Origin: an uncultured Candidatus Saccharibacteria bacterium
Lineage (GTDB): Bacteria; Patescibacteriota; Minisyncoccia; Phycocordibacterales; EsbW-18
Direction of reading: 5' to 3'
NCBI GenBank assembly: GCA_964447415.1
Contig: CAYUSN010000001.1
Location: 33,735-97,734, forward strand
Length of the DNA: 64,000 nt
Part shown: in pieces, positions 1-62,900 of the stretch
Layout: each line of letters begins with the position of its first letter
Position numbering within the stretch: the stretch's first letter is position 1
The notes under the pieces: generated by a model
What the model was told of the DNA's origin: nothing
Database searches by the model: none
What the model saw: only the letters and a program-made list of their open reading frames with translations
Position numbers and translations under genes: made by a program

Positions 1-83
1 TATCAATAAATAAAGGTGAGATGAGGTAATACGCGATACCGAGAATAATCAGCACGCCGAGAATAACAAGTGGTTTTTTCATA
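1..83 (-). CDS. partial CDS (N-terminus only; gene continues left of window): MKKPLVILGVLIILGIAYYLISPLFID..., signal-peptide/TM-like
   Basis: Minus-strand ATG at 83-81 followed by an open frame running to the window edge; hydrophobic N-terminus. Confidence 0.3.
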
Positions 84-126
84 GAAATGGAAAATTAGGA
101 GGTTAGTAATTGTGGGGTGACGTGAT

Positions 127-160
127 AGAGGATGTTAGAACTGTGTTTGAACGAAGAAAT
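127..160. repeat. direct repeat copy 1 (GGTGACGTG-A-TAGAG-GATGTTAGAACTGTGTTTGA)
   Basis: About 36/38 identical to 2044-2080; lies just downstream of the kinase gene stop. Confidence 0.5.
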
Positions 161-204
161 GATGCGAGTATATACGTCCCTTGTCTTTGACTTTTGTTTA
201 TTTC

Positions 205-1221
205 CTAAATCTTTTTCATTTTAGAAAACCAGAACTCTATCTGATCCTCTTTTAGAACAATGTCGTTTGCACCGGCTATTCTACTCCACAAAAAATCTTT
301 CAGTTCGGCGGGTACGTTTTGTTTTTTTATACTTTCTGCTTTATAAAGCAACCAAATAAAAAGATCTATATAAAAGATGGGGAGGAGCTTATTAACCTTA
401 GACAGAACATCTTGAACATCCACCTCTTCACCGTAGTAAGCTGTGATAATTTCTTTTCTTTCTTCATCTGACAAAGTCCTTTTGAGCGTGTACTGGTAAA
501 TATAATCCCAGAGAAGATATGAGATATCTTGAATAGGATTCCCGATGACTGCTGTTTGCCAGTCAATCAGATACCACCCACCCTCTTTATGGAGAATATT
601 CTCCGGGAATAAATCTCTATGTATTAAGGTGGTCCCAGTTAGTAGTTCCGCGTTATCCTTTAGGTACTGTTTGTAAATATCAGCATACTTTGAGAACAGT
701 GAAGCAATCACACTTTTGTTGTTCGTTGAAATAATTGTTAACCAGTTATCGTACAGTTTTATTTTATCCTCAGCGTTTGCATCGTGTCTAAAAGATTTCA
801 CAACCTCCTTTGTATCCACTGCGTGGAGGTTTTTTATTGTATTCGTAACCCCTCTAAAATCCGCCTCCACGCTTTTGTTGTCGTGTTCTAAATATTCTTC
901 AATTAAAAAACCATATGGGAAAAACTTTTTGCTTGAATCAACAAAATATACACGCGGGGCTACGTTGTATTGTTCAAGAAATTTAAGTACTTGGTATTCA
1001 CTTTCAACACTAATCTCATTACCGTTATACCAAACTTGGTCCGGCCAGATATTAAAGCGCATCACATATTTTGAAGCTCCAAAATCAAGAAAGTAGTTAA
1101 TGTTTGCCAACCCTTTACCTAATTCCTTCACGTTCTGTAATTCAGAAAGCCCATTTAAAAATGGGTCATTCAATAACATCCTATTTTTGAAGAAAGATTG
1201 TATCTGTTGGGTTAGGTCCAT
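205..1221 (-). CDS. aminoglycoside/choline-kinase-like (APH/ChoK family) phosphotransferase
   Basis: 338-aa ORF; catalytic-loop-like 'LIHRDLFPENIL' (HxDxxxxN) and 'IDWQTA' DFG-like motif typical of the APH/ChoK-fold kinases. Confidence 0.6.
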   Translation of the reverse strand: MDLTQQIQSFFKNRMLLNDPFLNGLSELQNVKELGKGLANINYFLDFGASKYVMRFNIWPDQVWYNGNEISVESEYQVLKFLEQYNVAPRVYFVDSSKKFFPYGFLIEEYLEHDNKSVEADFRGVTNTIKNLHAVDTKEVVKSFRHDANAEDKIKLYDNWLTIISTNNKSVIASLFSKYADIYKQYLKDNAELLTGTTLIHRDLFPENILHKEGGWYLIDWQTAVIGNPIQDISYLLWDYIYQYTLKRTLSDEERKEIITAYYGEEVDVQDVLSKVNKLLPIFYIDLFIWLLYKAESIKKQNVPAELKDFLWSRIAGANDIVLKEDQIEFWFSKMKKI

Positions 1222-1224
1222 ATT

Positions 1225-1971
1225 TTATATATTAACCACAACTTCTTGGTTTCTAAAATAAAACTTTAATTTATCCGCCAAAACCTCTACTTTGATTGCC
1301 TCACCCTTTTCCGTTAAATCCTTATTCTCTCTAATACTGTGTGCAAGATACAATTCTAAAACTGTGTCGAGCCATTCCCCGTGTGTTATCAATGCGAGTT
1401 TTTCATTCCCACCTTTTCTTTGTCGGGCTATCTCAATTATCCTCTTCAAAAAAGTTTCTACTTTCCCCCTATATTCTTGAATATCCTGTGTTGTTGGATT
1501 TTCTAAAGTTCCCATTCTAGATTTCAAGTAGTAGTCACTTTCCTGTTTAAGCCTTCCCAAAACTTCCGTCATATCTGACAAATATTTTTCCTTATCTCCC
1601 TGTTTCTTATAGATGTTTGTTTTTTCCTTGTCCAACATCTCTACGTTACTTAAACTCTGTCTCCCACCCCCAAGTCTAATCACCTCGTGCCCATGCTGAT
1701 TAAGGGCATCTTCTATGATTTGGGCAGAATTTTGGGCTCGGACTCGTGGGCTCATCATAATATAAACCTTATCTTGCTCCTGAATCTCATTATTTATTCT
1801 TTCCGCCAGATCTTGGATTTGCATTTTACCTTTCTCAGTCAAATCATTCTCTGACCCTGGGTCAGAGAACTCCTCTTTATATTCAGTATCTCCGTGCCTA
1901 ACGATAAAAATCGTAGCGAACGGGACAGGTTCCTTTTCAGTTGATTCAATTTTGTTGAGTCCTCCCTCCAT
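1225..1971 (-). CDS. histidine phosphatase (phosphoglycerate-mutase-like) family protein
   Basis: 248 aa; N-terminal 'IFIVRHGDTEY' RHG catalytic motif; 3-nt gap to the downstream kinase gene implies an operon. Confidence 0.55.
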   Translation of the reverse strand: MEGGLNKIESTEKEPVPFATIFIVRHGDTEYKEEFSDPGSENDLTEKGKMQIQDLAERINNEIQEQDKVYIMMSPRVRAQNSAQIIEDALNQHGHEVIRLGGGRQSLSNVEMLDKEKTNIYKKQGDKEKYLSDMTEVLGRLKQESDYYLKSRMGTLENPTTQDIQEYRGKVETFLKRIIEIARQRKGGNEKLALITHGEWLDTVLELYLAHSIRENKDLTEKGEAIKVEVLADKLKFYFRNQEVVVNI

Positions 1972-2043
1972 ATTATGAGTATACCAGTTCGAGCTACAAC
2001 TAGGGTGCCCGAATATACATTGCTACTTAAGACCTAAAACGAT

Positions 2044-2080
2044 GGGTGACGTGGTAGAGGGATGTTAGAACTGTGTTTGA
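2044..2080. repeat. direct repeat copy 2 (GGTGACGTG-G-TAGAGG-GATGTTAGAACTGTGTTTGA)
   Basis: Near-identical to 127-160; lies between the toxin gene stop (2102) and the phosphatase gene start (1971). Confidence 0.5.
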
Positions 2081-2101
2081 GGAGTTGGACACTCCAACAG
2101 T

Positions 2102-2479
2102 CTATGTGCCGACAAACTCTTGAAAAAGATCGGCGAGTAGCTCTCTTTGAGCGTTATCATGTTTTCCGCCCTCACCTTTATAACTTAAATTGTCCCTCCT
2201 GAATATACCTTGTAATAATATCGTCCCTTCCTCGAGATCAATTACAAAAATGACCCTGAATCCTCCTGACTTCCCTTTTCTTCTTGCCTTATCAGGCAAA
2301 CGTGTGCTCCAGCATTCAAAGCTGGAGTTTTGAAATAGGCAACTTTGGCGATTATGCGGAAGGGGAACGTTTTTAAAGTCCTTCAATGCTCGTTCATAAC
2401 CAGCATAATTACTGTCATCAACCCTTTCCCTCTTCCACCATTTATCAAAACTTTCTGTTCGCTGAACCTGCCAAACCAT
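2102..2479 (-). CDS. RelE/HigB-like type II toxin (mRNA-interferase superfamily; 'GKSGGFRVIF' motif)
   Basis: 125 aa; '...RKGKSGGFRVIFVIDLEEGTILLQGIF' matches the GKSGG-Y/F-R motif of the RelE-like (PF06296/COG4737-type) toxins. Confidence 0.5.
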   Translation of the reverse strand: MVWQVQRTESFDKWWKRERVDDSNYAGYERALKDFKNVPLPHNRQSCLFQNSSFECWSTRLPDKARRKGKSGGFRVIFVIDLEEGTILLQGIFRRDNLSYKGEGGKHDNAQRELLADLFQEFVGT

Positions 2480-2513
2480 AACAGAAAGTTATCCCTGAGG
2501 ACCGTGTACCTTG

Positions 2514-3017
2514 TTAAATCACACGAATTGAATCTTCTCTAAAAAATTCAATGTCATCCGCATTTTTATAATCCAATTCTTTTTGTACATCAGAGAAAAC
2601 CCAAGGTGCCTCACTATGGGTTTGAGCGATCATCTGGTCAGTACTCCACTCCTTAAATTCTTTACACAGATAACCTAAAAGTTTTTTTTCGTACTCATCA
2701 AAAACCTCCATATTAGGAACACCTACAGGCTCGTATCGGTCTCTGTTTCTAAATTTTTTACTCTGTTCCTTTTTTACGCGAATTATTTTCTTTTCTTTTG
2801 CCGTTCCAATTATTTTCTTTTCCAAACTTATTGCGAAAGGACCCATAGGTAAATGGATATATGTTTCTCCGGTCACGCTCTTATTTCGATCGCGATAGGA
2901 AATAAAATCAAGGTAATAGAAAAGCTTGTTGAGCTTTGTTTTACCCAATTTTTCGTTCCCGCATTCGGAGATGAAATAGAGGAGGGCGTTTAGGTACTTC
3001 TCTTGGTCTAGGGCCAT
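2514..3017 (-). CDS. Panacea-domain (DUF4065, SocA/PanA-like) putative antitoxin
   Basis: 167 aa; 'KTKLNKLFYYLDFISYRDRNKSVTGETYIHLPMGPF' resembles the DUF4065/Panacea core; 35-nt gap to the downstream toxin gene. Confidence 0.5.
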   Translation of the reverse strand: MALDQEKYLNALLYFISECGNEKLGKTKLNKLFYYLDFISYRDRNKSVTGETYIHLPMGPFAISLEKKIIGTAKEKKIIRVKKEQSKKFRNRDRYEPVGVPNMEVFDEYEKKLLGYLCKEFKEWSTDQMIAQTHSEAPWVFSDVQKELDYKNADDIEFFREDSIRVI

Positions 3018-3156
3018 TTCAACTGTATTTATAGTCCAGTATAACAGGCTATGACGCGACAGAGAATAGCCGGTGTATAACCAGAAATAGTCTAAAACGA
3101 AGCAAATGAATTTCCTTTTAAGTCCTGAATATCGCTAATTAAGGCCTGATTGGGGG

Positions 3157-3435
3157 CTAAGAAAGCTTTGAGTTCTGTGCGCCCCCGTTTTTGCCGATAC
3201 CAGCGAACAGTGAAAGTAGTTTATAGATTACCCACCCAACTAAATAGATATACACCGGAATAAAGATAAAGAACCAATAGATAAAGAAAGCATCCTTGTC
3301 TGTAAAGAAGTTTCTTATCTCTTCCATCGGACTCGTAGGGATTAAGAAAAAGATATCTAGAAACCAAAATACCATCCAGATGATGGACAGAATCCAATAC
3401 CACCTTATAAATTTGTTTTTTGGTAGTGAGATCAT
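3157..3435 (-). CDS. small integral membrane protein (2-3 TM), hypothetical
   Basis: 92 aa, strongly hydrophobic, W/F-rich. Confidence 0.35.
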   Translation of the reverse strand: MISLPKNKFIRWYWILSIIWMVFWFLDIFFLIPTSPMEEIRNFFTDKDAFFIYWFFIFIPVYIYLVGWVIYKLLSLFAGIGKNGGAQNSKLS

Positions 3436-3502
3436 ATTGTGGTGTGTGCAGTGAAATTTAACCTAAAGTAACACTTTGTAACACTTTTTGAGTCTACCTT
3501 TT

Positions 3503-3585
3503 GGTGTGTGTAGAGATGTTAAGTTTTTAATACTCCTACTTTTTACTACTTTTTCTACCCCCTCCCCCTACGACTTCCACCAAGA
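3503..3585. repeat. conserved 3' coding end plus 3' flank shared by two paralogous secreted-protein genes (copy A)
   Basis: About 85% identical to 4757-4838; covers the last ~6 codons (WWKS*), a C-rich tract and AAAAAGTAG repeats (mRNA sense). Confidence 0.5.
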
Positions 3586-4710
3586 AACAAAAGCACCCCA
3601 GAGCGTTTTGAATAAACCTTGTTTTACTTCTTGATCTGCTTCTCCTTTACTTGCCTCGGAGGTATCTGCCTTTTCTTGTCCTTGAACAATCACAATCCCA
3701 AAAAGTGACTTTGACACCCACCCTATAACCTTTTCACCCGTTCCACCTGCGTCAGTGGTTCCTTCTATGCGATACCACTCACCATCTTTATATTCTCCTG
3801 TGACAACCAGGTTTGAACCCTCAGCATAGTAACGGATTACTCCACAGTCTTGAGATGGGCATTTACGGAACTTTGCTGAGGTAGTGAGCGTACCAATTGC
3901 ACTTAAGGGTTTGATATCGTCTTCCGGAACGTCGAAGTTGGTTTCGACATTTTTTACCTCAATTGGCGGAGGGGTAAAGTTGGGCGTTACTTGCAATACC
4001 TGATTGTTTTGAGTTTTTATGCATGAGGTTTGCGATGAATTCCACTCGTATCCAGATCGGCAATAACAGAGTTCCGAATCACCATATGAATTCGGACCAA
4101 ATTGAATCTGACAGGCCTGGCTAGTTGTAATACAAACGTCATCAAGAGCGAGGTAACCATCATTACAAAAACACTCTGATCCGACTAGTGAGGCATTCTC
4201 TGGACAAGAGGTTTTAAAATCGGTTGACGAGTATCCGTAACTACCATCCGAGCTTTTGGGAATATCCTTAAAAACCACATCCTCCATGTCTCGATTTGGA
4301 GATATAAATGAGTTTTTTGCACACGCTATGGCTTCATAGGTATTAATCGAAGGAAACTTGGCGGTGTTTATCGTTAAATAACCAACGAATTTGTAACCAT
4401 CGTCGACAATGATTGGTGGATTGCTAGCGTATTCATTAAAGGCGCTTTGAGAACTATATTCACTGCCAAACTTCCCATATTCATTAAAGATGGAATCGGA
4501 TTTGTATTCGCTTCCGGCACCATATTCATTGGCAATAGAAAGACTGTTGTATTCATTTCCAATTGCTCCAATAAATATCCACTCATCGAAGTCATACCCA
4601 AAAATTGCCATCCCATCTACATCAAAACAAGAGAGTGAAGACGCTACTGCGGTATTCAGCGAAAAAAGAAAGAAAAGGCTGGCTATAAAATATTTAAGAT
4701 GCTTATCCAT
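3568..4710 (-). CDS. secreted Cys-rich protein with SH3b-like domain and conserved C-terminal tail (GLFKTLWGAFVSWWKS)
   Basis: 380 aa; N-terminal signal peptide; NEY(G)xGSEY repeats; many Cys; 'KDGEWYRIEG...GWVSKSL' is SH3b-like; the C-tail is shared with ORF 4821-5516. Confidence 0.5.
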   Translation of the reverse strand: MDKHLKYFIASLFFLFSLNTAVASSLSCFDVDGMAIFGYDFDEWIFIGAIGNEYNSLSIANEYGAGSEYKSDSIFNEYGKFGSEYSSQSAFNEYASNPPIIVDDGYKFVGYLTINTAKFPSINTYEAIACAKNSFISPNRDMEDVVFKDIPKSSDGSYGYSSTDFKTSCPENASLVGSECFCNDGYLALDDVCITTSQACQIQFGPNSYGDSELCYCRSGYEWNSSQTSCIKTQNNQVLQVTPNFTPPPIEVKNVETNFDVPEDDIKPLSAIGTLTTSAKFRKCPSQDCGVIRYYAEGSNLVVTGEYKDGEWYRIEGTTDAGGTGEKVIGWVSKSLFGIVIVQGQEKADTSEASKGEADQEVKQGLFKTLWGAFVSWWKS

Positions 4711-4756
4711 AGATTTCTGTTTTATCTATCAGGAGATAGGTTGGGTTTATTTTTCA

Positions 4757-4838
4757 GTGTGTGCGGAGAGGTTAAATTTTAAATACTCCTACTTTTTCCT
4801 ACTCTTCCTACCCCCCCCCTCTACGACTTCCACCACGT
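4757..4838. repeat. conserved 3' coding end plus 3' flank (copy B)
   Basis: Aligns with 3503-3585. Confidence 0.5.
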
Positions 4839-5489
4839 AACAAGGGCTTCCCATAAAGTTTTAAATAACCCTTTTTTCTCTGACTGATTTTTTGCGACAT
4901 CCTCACTGATTATGTCTACGGTGTCCGTAGCCGTCGCCGATGACTCTTCAATATTGCGCTCATTGACTGGTTCCGGTTCAATATCGACTTGAACCATAGG
5001 GCGAGGTTCTTCAACGCTTACCGGCGGTGGAGGGGGCTGAATTACGCTCTCTACGGGTGTTTCTTCAACCAACGGCGGGGGTGTCATTAGAGATTCCTGG
5101 TAGGCTTTCTCACCTAAAGCGACACATTCGTCATAAACCTTTTGAACATCGTCGTTGTACTCACGGATTGCTTGGCTCTGGTCTAACAACAGCGCGTCTT
5201 GTCGATCTTGAGAGTCACGTATTAATTTTGCTCTCTCTGCATCCATAGAAGATTGGCTCATTGCCCTAGTCTTCAGCTCTTCTAAATTTTCTAAAAGACT
5301 CCTCTGTTCATTTTCAATGTCTATCGTGTACTGTTCAATGGTCTTCTGTTGCGCCTTGAGTCTATAGTCATAAGCGAGATCATCATATTGGTCTTGGGTA
5401 CACAAAAAATCCGCCTGTGCGAGAAATGGTATTGCCCCCAGAAAAAGTGAAGCTACCAATATTTTTTTTATACCGAGGAAATTTTTCAT
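4821..5489 (-). CDS. secreted coiled-coil / Pro-rich protein with conserved C-terminal tail (GLFKTLWEALVTWWKS)
   Basis: Signal peptide (MKNFLGIKKILVASLFLGAIPFLAQA); alternative upstream start at 5516; same 18-aa tail as ORF 3568-4710. Confidence 0.45.
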   Translation of the reverse strand: MKNFLGIKKILVASLFLGAIPFLAQADFLCTQDQYDDLAYDYRLKAQQKTIEQYTIDIENEQRSLLENLEELKTRAMSQSSMDAERAKLIRDSQDRQDALLLDQSQAIREYNDDVQKVYDECVALGEKAYQESLMTPPPLVEETPVESVIQPPPPPVSVEEPRPMVQVDIEPEPVNERNIEESSATATDTVDIISEDVAKNQSEKKGLFKTLWEALVTWWKS

Positions 5490-5497
5490 AAAATTTA

Positions 5498-6367
5498 TTA
5501 GCCTTCGCACGCCCATCCATCACCGTCTCTGTCGAGCTTAAATTCATCGTATCCGAGAACCTGAACCTGTCCTGTGTAGTTTGGCCCATCGCCAGATCCA
5601 CCAGAACAATCGTAATCGCCTGCGTTTTGCTTCAAGCAACCGGAATAATTTGGATTACATTGCGACGATGCCTTTGCCGGCTTTGGAATTACAGGTGCTG
5701 GAGCTACAGGAATAGGGGCAGGTGCCTTCTCCTCTTCACATACCCCTGAAGCCCAGAGGCCCTTTTTGTTTATTTCTGCATTTTTTTGAGCAAGCTTAAA
5801 CTCATCCTGATATTTGTACGGGAGATCGTAAGTATATTCATATGCATATCCCTCTTTAATCATCAGAAGGTTAAAGTTGGTTCCATCTTCGAGAAAAACA
5901 TACCTAAGTAACCTGTCATATTTGTCCCTCTCTCCCTGGGTATTATCACTTTCCAAATATACATTCTTCCCCGTCAGTACTAGTTTTGCTTTATTAGAAG
6001 CTTCCGCACCGAAACACTCTACAGGCTTCCTAGGATCAACTGTTTCTGGAGTATCTATACCAATGAGCCTTAACCTTTCAACTTTCCCGTCGATAGAAAC
6101 GTCGATAGTATCTCCGTCCACCACCTTAACCACACCGTATGCCTGTTGGGTGAGTGTTTTTGGAGAGGTGCTCGTGGCTTCTGGAACAACGGAAGTCGTA
6201 ATATCCTCCAGCACCTCTGCTTGATTGTTTTCACGACCCCAATAACTAAACCAGCTAAATGGATTCCACCATACAGCCAGTGCTAATTGTGGGGCAAAAA
6301 TGCCAAGCGCTAGGATTAAAACGAGAACTCTCTTTAATTTTTCAGCACTCATGATTCCACGATACAC
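5498..6367 (-). CDS. secreted thermonuclease (SNase/micrococcal-nuclease fold) with C-terminal Excalibur Ca-binding domain
   Basis: 289 aa; signal peptide; 'GKVERLRLIGIDTPE' SNase core; C-terminal 'DCSGGSGDGPNY...DRDGDGWACE' Excalibur-type DxDxDGxxCE. Confidence 0.7.
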   Translation of the reverse strand: MYRGIMSAEKLKRVLVLILALGIFAPQLALAVWWNPFSWFSYWGRENNQAEVLEDITTSVVPEATSTSPKTLTQQAYGVVKVVDGDTIDVSIDGKVERLRLIGIDTPETVDPRKPVECFGAEASNKAKLVLTGKNVYLESDNTQGERDKYDRLLRYVFLEDGTNFNLLMIKEGYAYEYTYDLPYKYQDEFKLAQKNAEINKKGLWASGVCEEEKAPAPIPVAPAPVIPKPAKASSQCNPNYSGCLKQNAGDYDCSGGSGDGPNYTGQVQVLGYDEFKLDRDGDGWACEG

Positions 6368-6429
6368 CTGATAAACAGGAAAACAACAGGTATTGAAAAG
6401 TGTATATTTTTATGGGATAGTGCACTCAA

Positions 6430-7557
6430 ATGAGTATGAAAATAATGGATTCTCGAAATTTCTATCTCCTTTGGTACTTCTCAAAACACGATAAGTGGAA
6501 ACAGATGATGGAGATCTCATATGGAGGCCACTACGAAATGCCTATTGAGCCTTTTTGTAGTCAATACTACAAGGATTTTGTTTGGCTACTGGATGAGGGT
6601 TTTATCACAATAGAAGGGCTTTCATTTGTTGGTAATCAATTTTACAAAGAAATAAAACCCAGACTTTTATCTGCTCTAGATGGAAAACTAAGAAAAATCC
6701 TCGAAAAGAACAAATTCGGATATAAGGATTTCTTTTTACTTGAAGAGGCTTACAAGCAACTGATAGGTAACGGGAAAATACCTATCTCCATAATCATGCA
6801 CTCCCAGAGTTTGAGGGACTACCTTATGGACCCTGATTCAAAAATAAAAGTCCCGGATAAGGAAAAACTAGAGGGATATATTCAAAACTATTCTAAAGTA
6901 ACCGTACAGGAGTCAAAAATTACAGTTGGTTATGAACAGCTCTCTTTGAAAGATTTTTTTACTCTTGATTTGTTAAATTCCAAATACAAAGAGTACTGCG
7001 AACGTGAGTGTGGAAAATATGTTTACCCAACTGGTTCAAAAGAGGCCATCCGTGAATGTTTGGACTCAGAAATTCGTACAGTGGAAGATTCGGCAATATT
7101 CGATTTTGATAACATTTCCTTTCTGCTTCCATCCATGTACTACCTTGAAATGTTGGGCGCACTTGAAATCATTGAAATAGATGAGAATGAACAGGGTTAT
7201 TTTGATGTTCGATATAAATTAACTGGAAATATTCCCACCACCCTCAAGGACTCTGTTTATCTAATTGAATGTACAAAAAAGGATAGTGCAAATATGTTTG
7301 AAATTTACATAAACGGTGACAGAAAAAAACCAATTTCGGTAAAGTACGGTGAACGCTACGCGAAAGTAATCTATGAGATAGCCAATAAAGGGTTTTACCA
7401 ATCTATGGGTGCACACGAAAAAAAATTAGTTCGAGATTATATAAGATATTTTGTTGAAAAGAAGTTGCCAAAAAATTTAGCGGGGGTAAAAATAACCAAT
7501 GAACATCGAGGAAAATTTACTGCCTCGGCAGAAACAGAAATAACAATGAAAAAGTAA
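6430..7557 (+). CDS. hypothetical protein (375 aa, no recognisable motifs)
   Basis: Long AT-rich ORF with coding-like composition; no Walker or other motif seen. Confidence 0.4.
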   Translation: MSMKIMDSRNFYLLWYFSKHDKWKQMMEISYGGHYEMPIEPFCSQYYKDFVWLLDEGFITIEGLSFVGNQFYKEIKPRLLSALDGKLRKILEKNKFGYKDFFLLEEAYKQLIGNGKIPISIIMHSQSLRDYLMDPDSKIKVPDKEKLEGYIQNYSKVTVQESKITVGYEQLSLKDFFTLDLLNSKYKEYCERECGKYVYPTGSKEAIRECLDSEIRTVEDSAIFDFDNISFLLPSMYYLEMLGALEIIEIDENEQGYFDVRYKLTGNIPTTLKDSVYLIECTKKDSANMFEIYINGDRKKPISVKYGERYAKVIYEIANKGFYQSMGAHEKKLVRDYIRYFVEKKLPKNLAGVKITNEHRGKFTASAETEITMKK

Positions 7558-7558
7558 T

Positions 7559-7603
7559 TTCCGAAAAAGTTCCGAAAAGTTCCGACTTCAATTCCGAAAG
7601 TGG
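7559..7603. repeat. tandem TTCCGA(A)AAG-type repeats (4 copies)
   Basis: tttCCGAAAAAGTTCCGAAAAGTTCCGActtcaaTTCCGAAAG between two ORFs; operator-like. Confidence 0.4.
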
Positions 7604-7644
7604 ACCCCTAAAATACAGATACTAAGTAGTCTGTTTTTTTATTT

Positions 7645-7896
7645 ATGCAGATGGAACATGAAAAGGACTTATACCGCGTATCTGATCTAGCGCTTGCATC
7701 AACTCTTTTATGCCTTGGGTGCAGGCTTTGGGCAACAGACCGTTCAGATGAGAGGAGGGTTTCCTTTGTCTTTGAGAGAAACGAGGGACTAGACGAAATA
7801 CTGGAGAATTACTGGACAGGCCAGCTCCGTGTGGAGCCCGTGGCCTTTTTTAGTGCTGTTAAACAGGCTAAAAACAGGATTTATAGCGAATATTAA
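7645..7896 (+). CDS. small phage-like hypothetical protein
   Basis: 83 aa; '...RVSFVFER...ENYWTGQLRVEP...KNRIY' resembles small phage proteins (DUF5659-like); weak. Confidence 0.3.
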   Translation: MQMEHEKDLYRVSDLALASTLLCLGCRLWATDRSDERRVSFVFERNEGLDEILENYWTGQLRVEPVAFFSAVKQAKNRIYSEY

Positions 7897-7900
7897 TCAA

Positions 7901-8116
7901 ATGCCCACCAGAGACGACATAACCAGGTTTCAGGAGCTTTACAGAGAGCATTTCGGAACCGAAATCAGCAGAAAAGAGGCCCTTGAGAAAGGTGCGGGGC
8001 TATTGCGGTTTATGTCGCTTATTTATAGACCAATGGGCAAAGACGAGTTGAAGATTGTTCAAAAGCAAAGAGCCAACACCCTCCATTTATTACAAGAACG
8101 GATTACTAATTTGTAG
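7901..8116 (+). CDS. small hypothetical protein (start moved to the internal ATG at 7901 of ORF 7829-8116)
   Basis: 71 aa beginning MPTRDDITRFQELYREHFGTEISRKEALEKGAG...; the upstream part of the tracked ORF overlaps the previous gene. Confidence 0.3.
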   Translation: MPTRDDITRFQELYREHFGTEISRKEALEKGAGLLRFMSLIYRPMGKDELKIVQKQRANTLHLLQERITNL

Positions 8117-8124
8117 AAACTAAT

Positions 8125-8358
8125 ATGCGTAGTATCGAACGGAGATTTAAAAACTTTCAAACAAAATCAGGAGGATTGAGCAGTTACATGAACTTTGCAC
8201 AAGCAATCTCCGGACAGGGATTCAGTGAGAATAATTTGAGTCGATGGTTCAACAAACTCGTAGAAAAAGATGACTACGATAAGAAAGATCGAAAACAGAT
8301 TATCAAGAATCTCGTACTCCTTTCAAAACCATCTGAGGAGCACCTGTTTGAGGTATAG
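8125..8358 (+). CDS. small hypothetical protein
   Basis: 77-aa ORF in a tightly packed same-strand run. Confidence 0.3.
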   Translation: MRSIERRFKNFQTKSGGLSSYMNFAQAISGQGFSENNLSRWFNKLVEKDDYDKKDRKQIIKNLVLLSKPSEEHLFEV

Positions 8359-8420
8359 GAAGCCACTCAGAAGAACGTTTTATCAGAGCGTGGAGGCAAT
8401 CATCATGAATATGAGAAAGT

Positions 8421-8855
8421 ATGAAAAAAGGATGGATTAAACAATACCGGAGGGATATAGATGACCTCAGAGATTTAACAGAGCCTGAGTATCGTTACTA
8501 CACACTCTCCTGCTTATTTGCTGTATGGGATACAAGAAATAAGCTTTTTGGAACGTTTGACGCACGAACAAAAACAATAAAAGCAGAGCTTCTTCCGAGC
8601 TGGTCTACTGGAAAAATCAACACAACAAAAAATCTCCTCATAAAAAGAGGTTTCTATAAAAAAGTTCCTGACAACCGACTACACATTACAAACGCGAGGA
8701 TTGTTTTTGGTAAGAGTAGGGATGTTGAAAATCTGGTTCAGAATTATGAAGGTAATATTCGTGTGGATGAAAAAGAGATTCAACAGGCTGAAAATCGCCT
8801 GAGTAGTATCGTGGATATGAAAAGGAATCTAGCAAATAGAAAGAGGGTTTCTTGA
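8421..8855 (+). CDS. hypothetical protein
   Basis: 144-aa ORF, basic. Confidence 0.35.
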   Translation: MKKGWIKQYRRDIDDLRDLTEPEYRYYTLSCLFAVWDTRNKLFGTFDARTKTIKAELLPSWSTGKINTTKNLLIKRGFYKKVPDNRLHITNARIVFGKSRDVENLVQNYEGNIRVDEKEIQQAENRLSSIVDMKRNLANRKRVS

Positions 8856-9008
8856 GATTGACATTCACATAACTGAAAACACCTCTCAAGTTAAAGAAAT
8901 ACAGAGAAATACAGAGAAATCTAAATAAACAAAAACCCCAGAAAGTAACTGCTTAACAGTTAAAAAACAGTGAGAGACAGGATGCCTTTTAAGAGATATA
9001 CTATCTAT

Positions 9009-9114
9009 GTTGACCCAAGCGCAGGCACAATCCGAAGTTTTTTTCTTACCTCGTTGCCCTAAAGGGGCGGTCTGCCAACGAGGCTACTCTTCGGAGCAAG
9101 CGCATTGGGTCAAC
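9009..9114. promoter_or_regulatory. ~106-nt nested imperfect palindrome 50-150 bp upstream of the serine recombinase gene (candidate recombination site or structured leader)
   Basis: GTTGACCCAAGCGCA (9009-9023) pairs with TGCGCATTGGGTCAAC (9100-9114); inner CCGAAG/CTTCGG and CCTCGTTG/CAACGAGG arms; apical CCCTAAAGGG. Confidence 0.45.
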
Positions 9115-9162
9115 CAGACCGTCCCTTTAGAGTTTCTGGGTTATTAGCCTTAATACACCCAT

Positions 9163-10782
9163 ATGAGTATTGATAAGAATCAACCAATCAAATACTTCCT
9201 GTATGCTCGGAAATCCTCGGAAAGTGAAGATCGACAGGTTCAGTCGATTGATGATCAGATAAACCGTCTTAAAGAACTGGCGAAGAACCTACATATTCCG
9301 ATAAAAGAAATCCTCACCGAGGCAAAGACCGCAAAGAAACCACACTGCAGACCGGTCTTTGCACAAATGCTCGAACGTATCGAGAAAGGTGAGGCCAGTG
9401 GAATCCTTTGTTGGCAAATAAACCGTCTCTCTAGAAATCCAATCGACAGCGGAAAGTTGGGATGGATGCTTCAGCAAAACATTTTACAGTCCATTCAAAC
9501 CATTGACCGTCAGTATCTCCCTGACGACAACGTACTCCTGTTCAGTGTAGAGAGTGGGATGGCGAACCAGTTCATTATCGATCTGCGCAAAAACAGCCGA
9601 AGAGGTATGGAAGGAAAAGCCGACCGAGGGTGGCTCCCCTCCCGAGCACCGTTGGGGTATTTGAATGACAAGCTGAAGAACACGATTGTTAAAGACCCTG
9701 AACGTTTCGATCTCGTACGAAAGATGTGGAATCTCATGCTTACAGGCAACTACACGCCATCTAAAATATGCGACATTGCAAACAAAGAGTGGGGTTTTCA
9801 GACATCGCAAACAAAGCGTAGTGGTGGAGGAGAACTTGCGCTTAGCGTTTTATACAAAACATTCGCAAACATTTTCTACACAGGAAAATTTGAATGGGCT
9901 GGAAGAGTTTACGAGGGCAACCATGAGCCAATGGTGAGCTTGGAGGAATACGACCGTGTACAGGTAATTCTTGGGCGTGAAGGTAAGCCACGATCTAAAA
10001 CGCACGACTTTGCATATACAGGACTCATGCGTTGTAGTACGTGCGGTTCAATGTTCACAGCAACTGAGAAAAAGAAGTTTATACAAAGCACCGGTGAGAT
10101 TAGAACCTACGTTTACTACCACTGCACCAGAAAAAACAAGAATGTGCGGTGTAACGAAAAGAGCATCACCCTTGAAGTGCTCGAGGGTCAAATTGAGGCT
10201 GAGCTAGAGAGATACGCAATACTTCCCCAATTCCAAGAGTGGGCTATTGAGATCCTTAACCGTGATAACGACAAAGAGATTCAAGAGAGAACCAAGATAT
10301 ACGAGGCACAGCACAAGGCAATCGTGGGCGCACAAAAAGAATTGGATTCACTAACTCAAATGCGGTACAGAGACCTTATCGACGATGAAACCTTCATTCG
10401 GGAACGTGACACCTTAAAAGAAAAAATATCGACACTCACCAACAATCTAAGAGAGACAGAAGATAGGAGTAAGAAATGGTTAGAACTTACTGAGAAAACA
10501 TTTAACTTTGCGTGCTACGCCCGTAAAGAGTTCCTTTTTGGAGACCTCAACAAGAAACGAGAGATCTTCTCGGCACTTGGCTCGAACTTTTCTGTAAAAG
10601 ACCAGAAAGTACGCATTGAAGCCAACGAATGGCTCGTACCTATCGAAAAAGCCTACCCAGAGCTAGAACTTGAGTACAATCGGCTCGAACTAGATAAAAC
10701 CCTTGATACAGCAACACGAAATGAACGTTTTGCTGAACTTATTCTCTCTTGGGGTGCCTACTGGGAATCGAACCCAGATTGA
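9163..10782 (+). CDS. large serine recombinase/integrase (resolvase catalytic domain + recombinase domain + Zn ribbon + coiled coil)
   Basis: 539 aa; 'YARKSSESEDRQVQSIDDQ' catalytic-Ser region; 'CSTCGS...YYHC' Zn-ribbon; the last 33 nt overlap tRNA-His on the opposite strand. Confidence 0.85.
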   Translation: MSIDKNQPIKYFLYARKSSESEDRQVQSIDDQINRLKELAKNLHIPIKEILTEAKTAKKPHCRPVFAQMLERIEKGEASGILCWQINRLSRNPIDSGKLGWMLQQNILQSIQTIDRQYLPDDNVLLFSVESGMANQFIIDLRKNSRRGMEGKADRGWLPSRAPLGYLNDKLKNTIVKDPERFDLVRKMWNLMLTGNYTPSKICDIANKEWGFQTSQTKRSGGGELALSVLYKTFANIFYTGKFEWAGRVYEGNHEPMVSLEEYDRVQVILGREGKPRSKTHDFAYTGLMRCSTCGSMFTATEKKKFIQSTGEIRTYVYYHCTRKNKNVRCNEKSITLEVLEGQIEAELERYAILPQFQEWAIEILNRDNDKEIQERTKIYEAQHKAIVGAQKELDSLTQMRYRDLIDDETFIRERDTLKEKISTLTNNLRETEDRSKKWLELTEKTFNFACYARKEFLFGDLNKKREIFSALGSNFSVKDQKVRIEANEWLVPIEKAYPELELEYNRLELDKTLDTATRNERFAELILSWGAYWESNPD

Positions 10783-10825
10783 GAGCTCCACAAGCTCCAG
10801 TGTTGACCGTTACACCATAGGCACC
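10750..10825 (-). tRNA. tRNA-His (anticodon GTG), with G-1 and genomically encoded CCA
   Basis: Manual cloverleaf: G-1 + GTGCCTA acceptor, D-stem GTGT/ACAC, anticodon loop TTGTGGA, T-loop TTCGATT, 3' ...TAGGCAC-C-CCA. Confidence 0.8.
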
Positions 10826-34954: not shown

Positions 34955-35212
34955 TTACTGAATATCACGCACTATCCGCTTTCCGACCTCCTGTTCAAGT
35001 TGGTCGAGAATAATTGTTTTTTTAAATAAAAGGGTGTTTTTTACCGCACTTTCAAGTGTGCAGTACGCTACCGGACCGATAATACGTATATTCTTCTCCA
35101 ACACTGTTCTATTAAGCTCTTTTGAAAGAATGGTGCTGAGGTGTTTTTTTACCACACCGTCCGGCGGCGCAAAACGGGCGTATTTAGAAAGAAAATCACG
35201 AAGTATCTGCAT
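34955..35212 (-). CDS. DUF721 (DciA-like) protein downstream of dnaN
   Basis: 85 aa; C-terminus '...LLFKKTIILDQLEQEVGKRIVRDIQ' resembles the DUF721 end; classic position after dnaN. Confidence 0.55.
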   Translation of the reverse strand: MQILRDFLSKYARFAPPDGVVKKHLSTILSKELNRTVLEKNIRIIGPVAYCTLESAVKNTLLFKKTIILDQLEQEVGKRIVRDIQ

Positions 35213-35213
35213 A

Positions 35214-36314
35214 CTATCGGTTCATTGGCATCACAATATATAGAAATGATTTATCCCCAACCGAACGAATACACGTCGGCTTTCCTTGTCCGGCAAACTG
35301 CAATACCACACTGTCTGATGTAATTGATTGTAGGCCGTCGAGTACATATGCGTAGTTAAAATTCATTTCAATGTCTTCTCCGTTAACTGCAGCATCTAAA
35401 CACATCTCACCCTCTCCTGTTTCCGGGTTTGCTGTTTTTATACCGCATGTTTTTTTACTATGTGAAACCGCAACGGTTAATTTATTAAACTGATCGGAAA
35501 AAATACGAACATGCTTCAACGCATCCGCAAGATCTTGTTTTAGAAGTGTTATTTCCGTTGTAAAACTTTTCGGAATAATTTGTTTATAGTCAGGAAATAC
35601 ACCCTCCACCGCGCGTGATGTTATATATTTATTTTCCAATACAAAACCTATTTGATGTACGTCGCCGGTTACGGTGACATCTCCGTCGAATGTGTCTAAG
35701 TGGCGGAGCATCTCTCCGACGTTTTTAAGTGGTATAAGAAGCGTCTCTAGTCCCTGGATTGTGTCCGCTTTTACCCGCTTCTCCGCGAGTCGGAATGAGT
35801 CTGTGGCAACACACACAATATACCCCCCGTCATTGTAAAGGTAGACGCTTGAGAGCTCCGGTTTAATACTTCCCAACGAGGCACCCCACCAGACGCTTTT
35901 TAGACCGTCACAAAGTGTTTTTGCTGAAATAGAAAAGAGTTTTTTTGAGGAAAGTTTTGGAAGCGCCGGAAAATCCTCATGTGAAAGTGTTGCTACCCGT
36001 GTCGTACTTTTTTGCGTACCGACGGTAATATATAACCCCTCTGTGGTGATAGTAACCGAACCTGAGGCGGTGAGTGTTCCTAACAGCGCACCAAGCGTGT
36101 CGGCAGGCACTGCAACCACACCATCCTCTTCAACCTCCGCCGGAACAGTTATTTCAATACCGAGATCTAAATTGGTCGCCCGTACCACAACCGTATTTCC
36201 TGAGGCAGTCAGAAGTACACACCGTAGTACCGGTAGTGAAAGATTTTTTCCTGCAACCCTCTCTACACCAACAACGGCGTTATACAGGTTTTCTTTTTGT
36301 ACGGTTATTTTCAT
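35214..36314 (-). CDS. dnaN: DNA polymerase III beta sliding clamp
   Basis: 366 aa, three-domain clamp pattern, directly downstream of dnaA. Confidence 0.85.
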   Translation of the reverse strand: MKITVQKENLYNAVVGVERVAGKNLSLPVLRCVLLTASGNTVVVRATNLDLGIEITVPAEVEEDGVVAVPADTLGALLGTLTASGSVTITTEGLYITVGTQKSTTRVATLSHEDFPALPKLSSKKLFSISAKTLCDGLKSVWWGASLGSIKPELSSVYLYNDGGYIVCVATDSFRLAEKRVKADTIQGLETLLIPLKNVGEMLRHLDTFDGDVTVTGDVHQIGFVLENKYITSRAVEGVFPDYKQIIPKSFTTEITLLKQDLADALKHVRIFSDQFNKLTVAVSHSKKTCGIKTANPETGEGEMCLDAAVNGEDIEMNFNYAYVLDGLQSITSDSVVLQFAGQGKPTCIRSVGDKSFLYIVMPMNR

Positions 36315-36535
36315 AAATAAGAATTTATTATTACTATTAGCACGGTGAATTAGTGGATAAGAGAGAAAAAAAGAGTATAGAGATTATGTTTTTCAGTTAG
36401 TGGTGCGTGTAGAACTCTTTAATAACAACAGGTGATTTTTGAATAAGTTTTTTTAAATGGTACTAAAAGTATTTTTTTCCCCACACCACACACAAAGAAC
36501 TAGAAACTTATACATTTGTTATACACAGTTTGTTT
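36315..36535. promoter_or_regulatory. candidate chromosomal replication origin (AT-rich dnaA-dnaN intergenic region with DnaA-box-like 9-mers)
   Basis: ~221 bp at ~28% GC; AGTGGATAA (36352-36360) and TTATACACA (36519-36527) are each 8/9 to TTATCCACA or its complement; rpmH-dnaA-dnaN synteny. Confidence 0.4.
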
Positions 36536-37906
36536 TTATAACAACGCACGCACTTGGGCAATTTCCTGTTCAAGTTGGTGATCATTTTTTAAATCCTCTT
36601 TTACTTTCTCGTAGGAGTGAATTACGGTGGTGTGGTCTCTTCCGCCGAGTTTTTGTCCTATCATCGGATACGGAAGACTAAAATCCTCACGAAGCAAATA
36701 CATAATAATTTGCCGCGGCTTTACCACCTCTTTTTTTCTGCTTTTTTTATAAATACTGTCCTCATCCAAACTGTAAAAATCGGCGACAATCTTTACCACA
36801 TCCTTTACCGACACCATTTTCTTCGGTTTGATGTTGTTTTTAATTACCTCCCGTATTTCCTGTAGATTTAAATCACGTTTTTTAAGCTGAATCTGACACA
36901 CAATTGAATTGAGTGCCCCCTCAATCTCCCGGATATTACCCTCGATGCTGTTGGCGAGGTGGGTCACCACATCATCCGACAACACAATATTGTGTTCGGT
37001 GGCCTTTGTTTTTACGATGGCGAGACGGGATTCCTGGTCCGGCGGAGGTATATCAACCGTCATACCCGCGTTAAACCGCGATTTTAAGCGGTCTGCGAGG
37101 CTTTGGATGTAATTTGGGTGTCGGTCAGATGAAAAAATAATCTGTCCGTTACGGTCAAAAATTTCGTTAAACAGATGAAAGAGCTCCTCCTGGGTTTTTT
37201 CTTTATTTGAGAGAAATTGAACGTCGTCCATGATGAGCACATCATACTTCCGGTATTTTTCCTTGAAGTTATTAACCGCATTAATTTGAATGGCGTTGAC
37301 CAAGTCCTGCGCAAAACGCTCCGAGGTGACATAAAAAACTTTTTTGTCCGGATATTTCTTTTTTATTTCATTTCCAAGCGCCTGTATGAGGTGTGTCTTT
37401 CCGTGACCGGTCTGTCCGTAGACAAAAAACGGATTGTACCGAAGGCCGGGTTTCTCCAAAATTGCCTGCGCGGCCGCGTGTGCAAGTTCGTTAAACGATC
37501 CGACAACAAAAGAATCAAATGTATACCGCGGGTTGAGGTTGTCCGCTTTGTTGATATATAAATCGCGCAGCGGAAGTTCGTCCCCTGTCGTCCCCTGCTG
37601 CTGGGATGAGTATGAGGAGATTTTTGTGTCACTCGGCGCCTTTGTGGAGATAACATACTCAACCGACCGGATGGTGTAGGAGATGTCGCGGAGTGTTTTG
37701 AGTACCATTTTGTGGTACTTGTCGGCAATAAGGTCTTTGGTGAACGCGTTGGGAACGCCGACAAACACTACCCCGTCTTCAACCTTGACGACGTGGGTGT
37801 CTTTAAACCACGTTTTAAAGATTGCCTTAGAAACCAAAAACTCTATTGAGCCGAGCACCTGCTTCCATAAGTCTTTTGTGTCTGTGGGGGTGATGGTGTC
37901 GGTCAT
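36536..37906 (-). CDS. dnaA: chromosomal replication initiator DnaA
   Basis: 'NPFFVYGQTGHGKTHL' Walker A, 'VLIMDDVQFL' Walker B, C-terminal HTH 'MYLLREDFSLPYPMIGQKLGGRDHTTVIH'. Confidence 0.9.
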   Translation of the reverse strand: MTDTITPTDTKDLWKQVLGSIEFLVSKAIFKTWFKDTHVVKVEDGVVFVGVPNAFTKDLIADKYHKMVLKTLRDISYTIRSVEYVISTKAPSDTKISSYSSQQQGTTGDELPLRDLYINKADNLNPRYTFDSFVVGSFNELAHAAAQAILEKPGLRYNPFFVYGQTGHGKTHLIQALGNEIKKKYPDKKVFYVTSERFAQDLVNAIQINAVNNFKEKYRKYDVLIMDDVQFLSNKEKTQEELFHLFNEIFDRNGQIIFSSDRHPNYIQSLADRLKSRFNAGMTVDIPPPDQESRLAIVKTKATEHNIVLSDDVVTHLANSIEGNIREIEGALNSIVCQIQLKKRDLNLQEIREVIKNNIKPKKMVSVKDVVKIVADFYSLDEDSIYKKSRKKEVVKPRQIIMYLLREDFSLPYPMIGQKLGGRDHTTVIHSYEKVKEDLKNDHQLEQEIAQVRALL

Positions 37907-38046
37907 GGGAGAAAAGTGTCCACGTATTATATACGTGAAAGAGAATATACAAGCTTGAGAAAAGGAGAAAACTATGTTTATAATGTGGGGACAACACCAT
38001 TAGTAAAACGACAGTCCACAACACACCATAAAAAAGTCAAAAAACT

Positions 38047-59363: not shown

Positions 59364-59401
59364 ATTCCCCAGTATCGTCCCTCTGAGAGTGTTGTGGGAA
59401 C

Positions 59402-61154: not shown

Positions 61155-61576
61155 GGCTTTTTGTTTCCACGTTCAAACTCCACTAAGAGCCGGCCCGCGA
61201 CCTCAGTGAATTTGCCGACCATGTCTAATGTTTCTGTTGCCGACATCAAAACCACGTTATGGTTTTGTAATATCTCCATGAGCTTACACATCTGTTGAGT
61301 ATCACGATAGATTCTGTCCAACCTGTAGACTGCTAGGATGTCGAACTTTCCTTGCCCAATATCTTTTAGGAGTCGATTTAGTGCAGGTCTATGTGTTGCA
61401 GGTAGAGAACCTGAATATGCCCGGTCTACATATGTGTTTTCTTCTTTGACCTGTAAGTTTTGCGCTTCACAGGATTCAAGAACAGTTGCCTTTTGGACAT
61501 CCACTCCGTTGCGTTGCCAATCGGTAGACGTTCGTAGGTATATAGCTACTCTCTTGTTCGTTTGTTCTTTTTTCAT
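61139..61576 (-). CDS. small serine recombinase (resolvase catalytic domain only, no HTH)
   Basis: 145 aa; 'VAIYLRTSTDWQ...', 'ILAVYRLDRIYRD', 'GVVLMSATE'. Confidence 0.75.
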   Translation of the reverse strand: MKKEQTNKRVAIYLRTSTDWQRNGVDVQKATVLESCEAQNLQVKEENTYVDRAYSGSLPATHRPALNRLLKDIGQGKFDILAVYRLDRIYRDTQQMCKLMEILQNHNVVLMSATETLDMVGKFTEVAGRLLVEFERGNKKPCKVN

Positions 61577-61722
61577 AATTTTATGTTTGTGAACCTCACT
61601 ACCAGTCGTCCGTTTTTATTTTTGACATTGAACTTCTTAGTCTTTGGAAACCCTGCATTATTGAGCAGGTCTCGTACAAAGCTTTCTGGGGTGAATTTCT
61701 TAGTTTTGGTTTGTTTTTTCAT
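61573..61722 (-). CDS. 49-aa lysine-rich basic protein, stop overlapping the resolvase ATG (ATGA); candidate recombination directionality factor or DNA-binding accessory protein
   Basis: MKKQTKTKKFTPESFVRDLLNNAGFPKTKKFNVKNKNGRLVVRFTNIKL; not in the ORF track (<60 aa). Confidence 0.4.
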   Translation of the reverse strand: MKKQTKTKKFTPESFVRDLLNNAGFPKTKKFNVKNKNGRLVVRFTNIKL

Positions 61723-62742: not shown

Positions 62743-62900
62743 TCCAATGTTCTTTAAATGGTCTTTCTCCTCTCACTATCTGTCCGTGCATGACAGGATT
62801 CTTTCGCTCTAGCCAACGCATGAACTTGTCTTTTCTTGGCTCAATCCAACGGCTTCTCTCCAACCAGTCCTCTGGTAGTGTCTCTTTTAGTTTTCCCATG

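Follow-up and report, generated by a model that had tools for sequence, protein, structure and literature searches.

The first 10.8 kb of a 64,000-nucleotide stretch of DNA from an uncultured Candidatus Saccharibacteria bacterium (GenBank assembly GCA_964447415.1, contig CAYUSN010000001.1, positions 33,735–97,734; the whole stretch is hereafter called the window) is probably the tRNA-His-proximal end of a tandem array built by a family of large serine recombinases (LSRs) of Patescibacteria, with a phosphatase-kinase gene pair near its left end as passenger cargo. A first-pass annotation of this DNA had described the pair as a two-gene operon bracketed by a near-perfect 36-bp direct repeat, and had proposed that it is a novel module, possibly of the toxin-antidote type, lying in a mobile island. 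Comparison of the window with other loci carrying the same repeat established the anatomy of the junctions, their anchoring at tRNA-His, their sharp left boundary and the shuffling of cassettes between genomes.

Recombinase Tails and the tRNA-His Junction

The parent gene of the repeat was located by searching the six-frame open reading frames (ORFs) of the fetched loci with the recombinase of the window. In loci L110, L111 and L123, the repeat element is the in-frame 3′ tail of an LSR ORF, which reads ...LILEWG, then AVVEDVRTVFERRNDATIYIPAF... up to the stop codon. The window recombinase is homologous up to ...LILSWG, and its last eight codons (AYWESNPD, followed by a stop) are the antisense of the tRNA-His T-arm. 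The recombinase of locus L160 likewise ends in the antisense of its own tRNA-His. The window and L160 recombinases part from those of L110, L111 and L123 exactly after TGGGG(T/C)G(C/A)C. One core, TGGGG(T/C)G(A/C)C, is common to the recombinase 3′ ends, to all element copies and to the antisense of the tRNA-His 3′ end. In the window, the attR core tggggtgcc is found at 10750–10758 as the antisense of the tRNA-His 3′ end ...GGCACCCCA. Taken together, the anatomy of the tail and the tRNA-His junction identify the repeats as attL-type junctions. As in other islands of LSRs, the recombinase lies at one end, the tRNA is intact, and the core is present both in the 3′ end of tRNA-His and at the far end.

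The anchoring is complete. In all 53 loci that contain tRNA-His, the tRNA gene occupies the strand opposite to the copies and lies downstream of all of them, at a median distance of ~850 bp past the last one. Left of the boundary between T and GGG of the core, the 198 unique junctions have an information content of ~0; to the right, it is about 1.6–1.9 bits at most positions. Core position 4 (T/C) equals that of the resident tRNA-His in 67 of 68 junctions, and position 6 in only 38 of 68. LSR reactions need identity only at the central dinucleotide, and the difference between the two positions points to a crossover at about core positions 3–5, where the putative crossover dinucleotide would lie.

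A second, distant serine recombinase lineage (L158, 5960–7690; L164, 5211–6941; L169, 146–1285), with the array and tRNA-His downstream, also ends in the element DNA, in another frame (...KGRRRRGCSNCV, followed by a stop). Conservation of the first ~36 nt of the element is therefore that of a DNA site, and conservation of the remainder that of a coding sequence.

To the right of the arrays in loci L017, L025 and L041, a gene for a secreted protein of 370–450 aa, mscL and the gene for an ATP-cone ribonucleotide reductase adjoin the array and tRNA-His; mscL and the reductase are presumptive names, given by eye from the N-terminal sequences. This suggests that the tRNA-His hotspot has a conserved chromosomal neighbourhood.

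Proposed Assembly of the Array

The features on which the proposed model is built are listed below, with the method that supports each of them in brackets.

1–82, minus strand: 5′ end of the next gene (MKKPLVILGVLIILGIAYYLISPLFID...), extending beyond the window (ATG at 82–80, by reading)
113–190, plus strand: att repeat copy 1, attL-type junction (nhmmer 114–181, E 4.6e-17; alignment to recombinase 3′ ends; translation)
205–1221, minus strand: kinase of the APH/choline-kinase fold, 338 aa, second gene of the cargo operon (Pfam PF01636)
1225–1971, minus strand: phosphatase of histidine phosphatase branch 1, 248 aa, first gene of the cargo operon (Pfam PF00300)
2043–2123, plus strand: att repeat copy 2, attL-type junction of the recombinase island (nhmmer 2043–2112, E 7.2e-14)
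2102–3017, minus strand: Panacea (SocA) antitoxin (2514–3017) and RelE-like protein of 125 aa (2102–2479), left end of the recombinase island
9163–10782, plus strand: large serine recombinase (Pfam Resolvase, Recombinase and Zn_ribbon_recom; PHROG integrase, 9.8e-63; C-terminal comparison)
10750–10824, minus strand: tRNA-His, the target gene (ARAGORN, Rfam)

The gene at 1–82 belongs either to the next cassette or to the chromosomal flank.

In the unintegrated state, or when followed by a cassette, the LSR gene would cross its own attachment site, in the order ...ELILSWG, core TGGGG(T/C)G and a tail of ~25–35 codons (AVVEDVRTVFERxNDxSIYIP...). Recombination with the 3′ end of tRNA-His (antisense TGGGG(T/C)G(C/A)C) would carry the tail to the far end of the insert (attL). 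The same recombination would fuse the body of the LSR to the antisense of tRNA-His (attR), leaving the tRNA intact and free for the next insertion. New insertions beside tRNA-His would push the older units outward and thus leave a series of co-oriented core-plus-tail junctions. Under this model, unit 1 (2043–10758) would be a complete recombinase island of about 8.7 kb with its own LSR, and unit 2 (113–2042), the next one outward, an LSR-less unit of 1.9 kb with the phosphatase-kinase operon as its only cargo. The “36-bp direct repeat” would then consist of the core and the predicted recombinase-binding P′ arm of two successive junctions.

The Direct Repeat and the 70-nt Element

The repeat is real, with two matches of a 20-mer against 0.00 expected in shuffled sequences. 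Its copies at 116–150 and 2045–2080 differ by one substitution and one inserted G, and flank the pair, leaving 54 nt and 73 nt up to the two ORF ends. The first-pass annotation had located the second copy correctly and the first one 11 nt off, at 127–160. It was also right that the repeat brackets the pair, although the 36 bp are the first half of a longer element of ~70 nt: weaker similarity runs for ~35 nt past the repeat, giving elements at 113–190 and 2043–2123. The two window copies are identical at 35 of the first 36 nt and diverge sharply afterwards. Copy 1 comprises the core TGGGGTGAC at 113–121, a P′ arm conserved at the nucleotide level up to 150 and a remainder coding for the recombinase tail; its tail ORF (110–190) is intact and reads MWGDVIEDVRTVFERRNDASIYVPCL up to the stop codon. 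Copy 2 has the core TGGGTGAC at 2043–2050 and a P′ arm up to 2080.

An exact scan found the 21-nt core of the repeat in 34 stretches of species-representative genomes, nearly all of them titled Patescibacteria, Saccharibacteria, Paceibacterota, Kaiserbacteria or Minisyncoccia. The chance expectation for a 21-mer in 596 Gb is, by our own arithmetic, less than one match. In metagenomes, the 21-mer occurs in at least 120 stretches. A scan of viral contigs with the 21-mer gave no match, and phage origin was rejected. As the 21-mer served as the bait, it is invariant by construction, and the unbiased signal comes from the flanks and from the secondary copies found with nhmmer. The nhmmer profile revealed 258 element copies in 156 loci. 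In each of the 61 loci with multiple copies (102 extra copies), the copies share one orientation; they are spaced by a median of 1016 bp.

Assembled contigs frequently stop at the element or within it. A locus end lies within 150 nt of 39 element copies, the window itself starts 112 nt before copy 1, and a 12 kb Logan contig of the same strain also stops near window position 60. Hence, the tRNA-His array is a systematic assembly break point in Patescibacteria, both in metagenome-assembled genomes (MAGs) and in Logan contigs (e.g., L019 and L040 of one MAG, L018 and window position 1).

On its plus strand, the element encodes the sequence G-[AD]-V-V-E-D-V-R-T-V-F-E-R-x-N-D-x-S-I-Y-I-P, followed by a short variable end. 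Variation is in excess at third codon positions, and of the 183 unique copies, 169 have the frame open for 25 codons or more. A query of 44 aa found one 31-aa ORF in the database and nothing longer, and there was no Pfam match at E ≤ 10. The open frame, its purifying-selection-like variation and the annotation of one copy as a 31-aa protein would suit an independent small gene (for a protein of 26–45 aa), a non-coding RNA or a repeat resembling miniature inverted-repeat transposable elements (MITEs), with an incidental overlap with the recombinase. The peptide may also bear a loose likeness to the first beta-hairpin of AbrB/VapB antitoxins. Such an independent origin is nevertheless very unlikely. 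Neither Pfam nor Rfam gave a match to the element. The DNA upstream of the core shows no conservation, and hence no conserved promoter or ribosome-binding site. The copies are strictly oriented and completely anchored at tRNA-His, and the second recombinase lineage uses the same DNA in another frame.

Other identities of the element were tried and rejected. A structured RNA was one of them: Rfam gave only tRNAs, whether the window was searched at the gathering threshold or seven array loci at E ≤ 1, and the RNAalifold consensus of the element reached −5.4 kcal/mol with 0 compensatory pairs. As for a promoter or terminator, a consensus scan was no richer than in shuffled sequence and found none at the repeats; any −35 box that might exist would overlap with the variable part of the element. 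A displaced tRNA fragment was rejected as well, as past the 9-nt core there is only a loose likeness to the antisense of tRNA-His, which we read as half-site similarity.

Cassettes as Units

The 93 unique inter-element segments have a median length of 952 bp (interquartile range 720–1370). On average, the longest ORF occupies 78% of a segment, and in 74% of the segments it is antisense to the element, i.e., co-directional with tRNA-His. The cargo includes GNATs, an ANT(2″)-like nucleotidyltransferase, AbiEi/AbiEii, a YafQ-like toxin-antitoxin (TA) pair, Fic and patatin proteins, as well as NUDIX, methyltransferase, P-loop kinases, EamA, NYN and a radical SAM protein. Homologous cassettes are found between unrelated neighbours: those of L070 and L075 share 85% identity over 1976/1980 bp, those of L063 and L109 96% over 804 bp, and those of L134 and L142 89% over 913 bp, in each case with unrelated flanks. 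Therefore, the cassettes move as units.

Co-oriented, mostly single-gene cassettes of ~1 kb with integron-like cargo (TA pairs, GNATs and uncharacterised genes) recall classical integron arrays, or the integrase-less clusters of attC sites (CALINs), in which the repeat would be an attC site for the tyrosine integrase IntI. This identification is extremely improbable. The element forms no conserved hairpin, as the consensus folding described above indicates, and has neither an R″/R′ pair nor an inverse core site. Among all fetched loci (up to 14 kb each), 156 of which carry the element, a phmmer search with XerD found a tyrosine recombinase only in L072, 5 kb from the element. Moreover, the element is protein-coding and represents the 3′ end of serine recombinase genes.

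Most cassettes have no LSR. These were presumably moved in trans by an LSR, or by homologous exchange between the 70-bp repeats. Several observations weigh against the proposed array or against parts of it. The window and the contigs end just to the left of copy 1, and the outer end of the array is outside them. In copy 2, the inserted G at about 2060 puts the tail out of frame. No empty site, excised circle or cassette-less strain was found, and look-ups with the kinase, the phosphatase and the Panacea protein led to the same arrangement. Mobilisation of LSR-less cassettes in trans is not established, since the left half of the array junctions is unconserved and classical LSR attP sites require two half-sites.

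The same unconserved half-sites, along with the lack of an LSR in most cassettes and the abrupt end of the identity between the window copies after 36 nt, would fit an array of the same att origin in which the small cassettes are not individually mobile. Serial integrations of islands, loss of recombinases and shuffling by homologous recombination between the ~70-bp repeats would be sufficient in that case. We consider this history unlikely in view of the exact boundaries of the junctions in 198 unique copies and of the central position that equals the resident tRNA in 67 of 68. Whole-cassette homology also stops at the elements, although homologous exchange would give the same pattern. An array assembled by successive site-specific insertions remains the preferred reading.

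The Phosphatase-Kinase Operon

In the cargo operon, the phosphatase gene (1225–1971) is upstream and the kinase gene (205–1221) is second, with a 3-nt gap; both are on the minus strand. The co-orientation and the gap had been described correctly in the first-pass annotation, and the strand and gene order are corrected here. Its assignments of both folds were confirmed. The kinase matches Pfam APH (PF01636) with 67.1 bits and E 2.6e-18 (cut-off 23.2) over residues 31–243, and the phosphatase matches His_Phos_1 (PF00300) with 48.4 bits and E 1.1e-12 (cut-off 21.7), in its N-terminal part only. Weaker Pfam matches of the kinase are EcKL (PF02958, E 1.9e-6), DUF1679 and RIO1. Residues H201, D203, N208 and D220 of the kinase, which make up the HxDxxxxN motif and the Mg-binding Asp, are invariant in 14 homologues. 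Invariant in 14 homologues of the phosphatase are R25-H26-G27, R76 and H197, comprising the RHG motif and the second catalytic His. Judging by these residues, both enzymes look catalytically competent. No named NCBIfam equivalog was found for either protein.

The structure model of the kinase (pLDDT 82) has choline/ethanolamine kinases, APH(9) and Mph as its best PDB matches, with a template modelling (TM) score of ~0.55 and 10–18% identity. The model of the phosphatase (pLDDT 85) has a full-length PhoE/dPGM-type fold, and its best matches are the riboflavin-pathway phosphatase 9mmh, PhoE and YKR043C. Both models fit the generic folds (ChoK/APH/Mph and PhoE/dPGM-type, respectively) at a TM score of about 0.5–0.6. 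They are about equally far from many enzymes, and assignment of a substrate from structure was rejected. By sequence, the nearest solved relative of the kinase is pneumococcal LicA (E 8e-7). Neither Pkinase (PF00069) nor PP2C (PF13672) is among the Pfam matches of the pair, which thus does not belong to the KKP systems of prophages.

Homologues and Partners of the Phosphatase

Both families are rare, with 14 clusters of each protein among 5.8 billion sequences; a full profile search with the phosphatase yielded six representatives at E ≤ 1e-30 among 1.84 billion. In every located kinase locus (L002, L005 and L008–L010), a phosphatase homologue lies directly upstream of the kinase homologue, in agreement with the operon proposed from the window alone. 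Three further genomic contexts (L002–L004, L005–L007 and L008–L010) preserve the order of phosphatase before kinase, with a 5-nt gap or a 14-nt overlap. The L002 pair adjoins rpoB/rpoC. The L005 pair is preceded by an Xre helix-turn-helix (HTH) gene, with a large serine recombinase, a patatin gene and IS1595 nearby. The L008–L010 pair is situated behind a HicA-like pair and ahead of an alaS-like gene. Common neighbours of the phosphatase and kinase homologues are TA genes, Fic, patatin and Xre-HTH.

The exact bracketing of these two genes by the repeats, and their tight, conserved coupling, had suggested that the repeat bounds a cassette of the pair's own and accompanies a novel module of a kinase toxin and a phosphatase antidote. 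The distribution of the element makes this scarcely credible. The att element is absent from all nine other pair loci (L002–L010) and from five phosphatase-only loci (L047–L051), and the pair is absent from all 155 other element loci. The repeat flanks at least 93 unrelated cassettes, i.e., it is a dispersed sequence with no connection to the pair, the finding that the first-pass annotation had itself named as contrary to its proposal. Its placement of the pair in a mobile island held: the pair lies in a low-GC island, and the repeats mark a cassette boundary.

The phosphatase also occurs with other partners. In three loci, a phosphatase of 58% identity is followed by a split dikinase with PEP-utilizers and PPDK_N domains, related to phosphoenolpyruvate (PEP) synthase and rifampin phosphotransferase (L049, 1114–3479; L050, 2979–5296; L051, 1268–3585). 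It consists of a His-domain protein of 455–471 aa and an ATP-grasp protein of 317 aa. In L050, the phosphatase-dikinase module is located directly behind a large serine recombinase. Phosphatases of 50–60% identity sit downstream of a conserved 322-aa protein (L174, 4084–5055; L047, 6840–7808; L173, 2–667), at a distance of 4–7 nt (L174, L172 and L173) or about 190 nt (L047/L048). Two compared copies of the 322-aa protein are 59% identical. It was rejected as a relative of APH, with an hhalign probability of 1.5%, and it has no Pfam, NCBIfam or PDB sequence match. A DxxxxN...D motif, possibly kinase-like, was read in it by eye and is a hint only. The phosphatase thus recurs as the fixed member, with kinases of at least two unrelated types as partners.

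Because of the gene order, coupling, rarity, island and TA neighbourhoods and partner swapping, we tentatively regard the two proteins as opposing enzymes acting on one phospho-substrate, which may form a low-flux conflict or regulatory module rather than serve housekeeping. The kinase would be the effector, and the phosphatase its restraint or antidote. A conflict or toxin-antidote role for the pair is plausible. Certain facts speak against such a role. If the opposing kinase and phosphatase were expressed together and shared a small-molecule substrate, they would run a futile cycle. Two homologous pairs are found beside housekeeping genes, rpoB in one case and alaS together with secE-nusG in the other. 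PADLOC-DB 2.0 gave no significant match to a known defence system: the kinase matched only PD-T4-6 (15.5 bits, E 0.0018) over the catalytic loop, and the phosphatase had no match.

It is also possible, if short of an even chance, that the two enzymes are not antagonistic. They could form a two-step small-molecule route, in which a phosphatase is followed by an anomeric or hydroxyl kinase, as MupP is by AmgK, or the kinase could be a phosphotransferase for antibiotics or xenobiotics, with the phosphatase in an accessory role. The closest relatives of the kinase in sequence and fold (LicA choline kinase, APH, Mph, NahK and steroid kinase), the nearest folds of the phosphatase, which are metabolite phosphatases, the relation of the alternative partner to PEP synthase and rifampin phosphotransferase, and the presence of some pairs among housekeeping genes are all consistent with it. 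The family is, however, rare, patchy and island-borne, no other pathway genes are linked to it, and its neighbours are TA genes, Fic and Xre.

Other Features of the Window

The GC content is 36–46% up to 10.8 kb against 50–56% in the adjacent host DNA (11–35 kb), and the host side of the window is syntenic with loci of Patescibacteria MAGs. Other stretches of low GC content are found at 35000–38000 and 58000–64000 (0.38–0.46 against ~0.52 around them) and may be other acquired regions.

The cargo of the recombinase island includes the Panacea/RelE-like TA pair, secreted proteins, an SNase nuclease and a DUF5659 protein. The Panacea domain was recognised with confidence (PF13274, E 3.4e-18). 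Its 125-aa neighbour has a weak RelE match (E 0.049) and a GGFRVIF motif, and together the two proteins probably form a toxin-antitoxin pair of the PanA type, at the island's outer end. The gene at 5498–6367 (minus strand) encodes a secreted SNase-fold nuclease with an Excalibur Ca-binding end, which strongly matches the PADLOC candidate C3a212 “SNc+LTD” (2.7e-48). Adjoining genes at 3568–4710 and 4821–5516 (both minus strand) encode predicted secreted proteins with a near-identical C-terminal motif (...GLFKTLWGAFVSWWKS and ...GLFKTLWEALVTWWKS), which may be a lineage-specific sorting or anchor signal. A 148-nt direct repeat of 78% identity (3488–3635 and 4741–4888) spans the C-terminal ends of both secreted proteins and the DNA downstream.

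Implications

Patescibacteria have tiny genomes, and their acquisition of accessory genes is little understood. If the proposed array is correct, a conserved tRNA-His hotspot at which single-gene cassettes are stacked and swapped would be one of the main channels of gene flow among these bacteria. It would also offer a practical handle for mining accessory and defence genes of Patescibacteria, and would help in understanding the assembly breaks. An LSR whose C-terminus is exchanged by its own reaction is a candidate for self-contained control of directionality, which is relevant to recombinase engineering. As a single rare phosphatase family has partners of two or more unrelated kinase types, the pair is a clean test case for enzymatic-antidote logic beyond Pkinase/PP2C.

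More speculatively, the LSRs at tRNA-His may constitute an undescribed integron-like platform by which cassettes of ~1 kb are caught, stacked and exchanged. Swapping of the conserved tail for the stub encoded by the tRNA could switch the activity or directionality of the recombinase, and the pair would be a conflict-type cargo, with the phosphatase as an antidote to interchangeable kinases. We put this broader proposal forward as a conjecture with roughly one chance in three.

Comparison with Known Systems

In the full-text literature searched, we found no description of an LSR targeting tRNA-His across Patescibacteria, of integron-sized cassettes in such arrays or of an att site that is the recombinase's own C-terminal tail. 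In composite islands of the staphylococcal cassette chromosome (SCC/SCCmec), the LSRs CcrAB and CcrC insert at the 3′ end of rlmH, and tandem units are bounded by direct repeats of the att core. The window resembles them in having an LSR at the 3′ end of one conserved gene and tandem repeat-bounded units, some of them recombinase-less. It differs in that the target is tRNA-His, the units are mostly single genes of ~1 kb and the att site overlaps the 3′ coding end of the recombinase. The window LSR is not a Ccr: its NCBIfam scores are 56.5 bits for CcrB, 54.2 for CcrC and 46.1 for CcrA, against cut-offs of 700–900.

The arrays also share with integrons their co-orientation, the size of the cassettes, the types of cargo and the movement of cassettes as units. 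They have neither a tyrosine IntI nor a folded attC; the site here is linear and of the LSR type, with a central dinucleotide. In IntP/IntX of the Myxococcus phage Mx8 and the SSV1-type integrases, which are tyrosine recombinases, attP lies inside the integrase's own gene, and Mx8 targets a tRNA gene. There too, the recombinase gene receives a new 3′ end on integration, and the C-termini encoded by the free and integrated forms therefore differ. In the present case, it is an LSR that trades a conserved tail of 25–35 aa for eight residues from the antisense of tRNA-His.

Among tycheposons, 27 of 937 use an LSR; they integrate at tRNA 3′ ends, and repeated insertions push older elements inward to the island (bioRxiv 10.1101/2020.12.28.424599). 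Like these and other tRNA-anchored islands (Islander, PMC4383910), the arrays use a tRNA 3′ end, and remnant att repeats mark old events. Unlike in tycheposons, the repeats consist of the 9-bp core and the recombinase tail, not of partial tRNA copies, and the cassettes of Patescibacteria are much smaller and mostly without replication or integration genes. The repeat and the array are thus of a known kind, namely tandemly accreting site-specific islands at tRNA genes.

For the cargo pair, the closest published logic is that of the KKP of Pf prophages, with two Pkinase (PF00069) proteins, toxic kinase activity and a PP2C (PF13672) antidote (PMC11341870). The likeness lies in the operon of a kinase and a co-encoded phosphatase on a mobile element, the arrangement invoked when the pair was first noticed; the suggestion made then, that no such system had been described, holds for this combination of families and not for the logic. 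The pair differs in consisting of one APH-fold kinase and one His_Phos_1 protein. The two superfamilies also meet in insects, where EcKL (PF02958) and ecdysteroid-phosphate phosphatase (His_Phos_1 family) inactivate and reactivate one small molecule; there is no homology to the window pair beyond the superfamily level. The same applies to the PrpC-PrkC and Stp-Stk operons, of which PrpC-PrkC shares the phosphatase-then-kinase order with the window pair.

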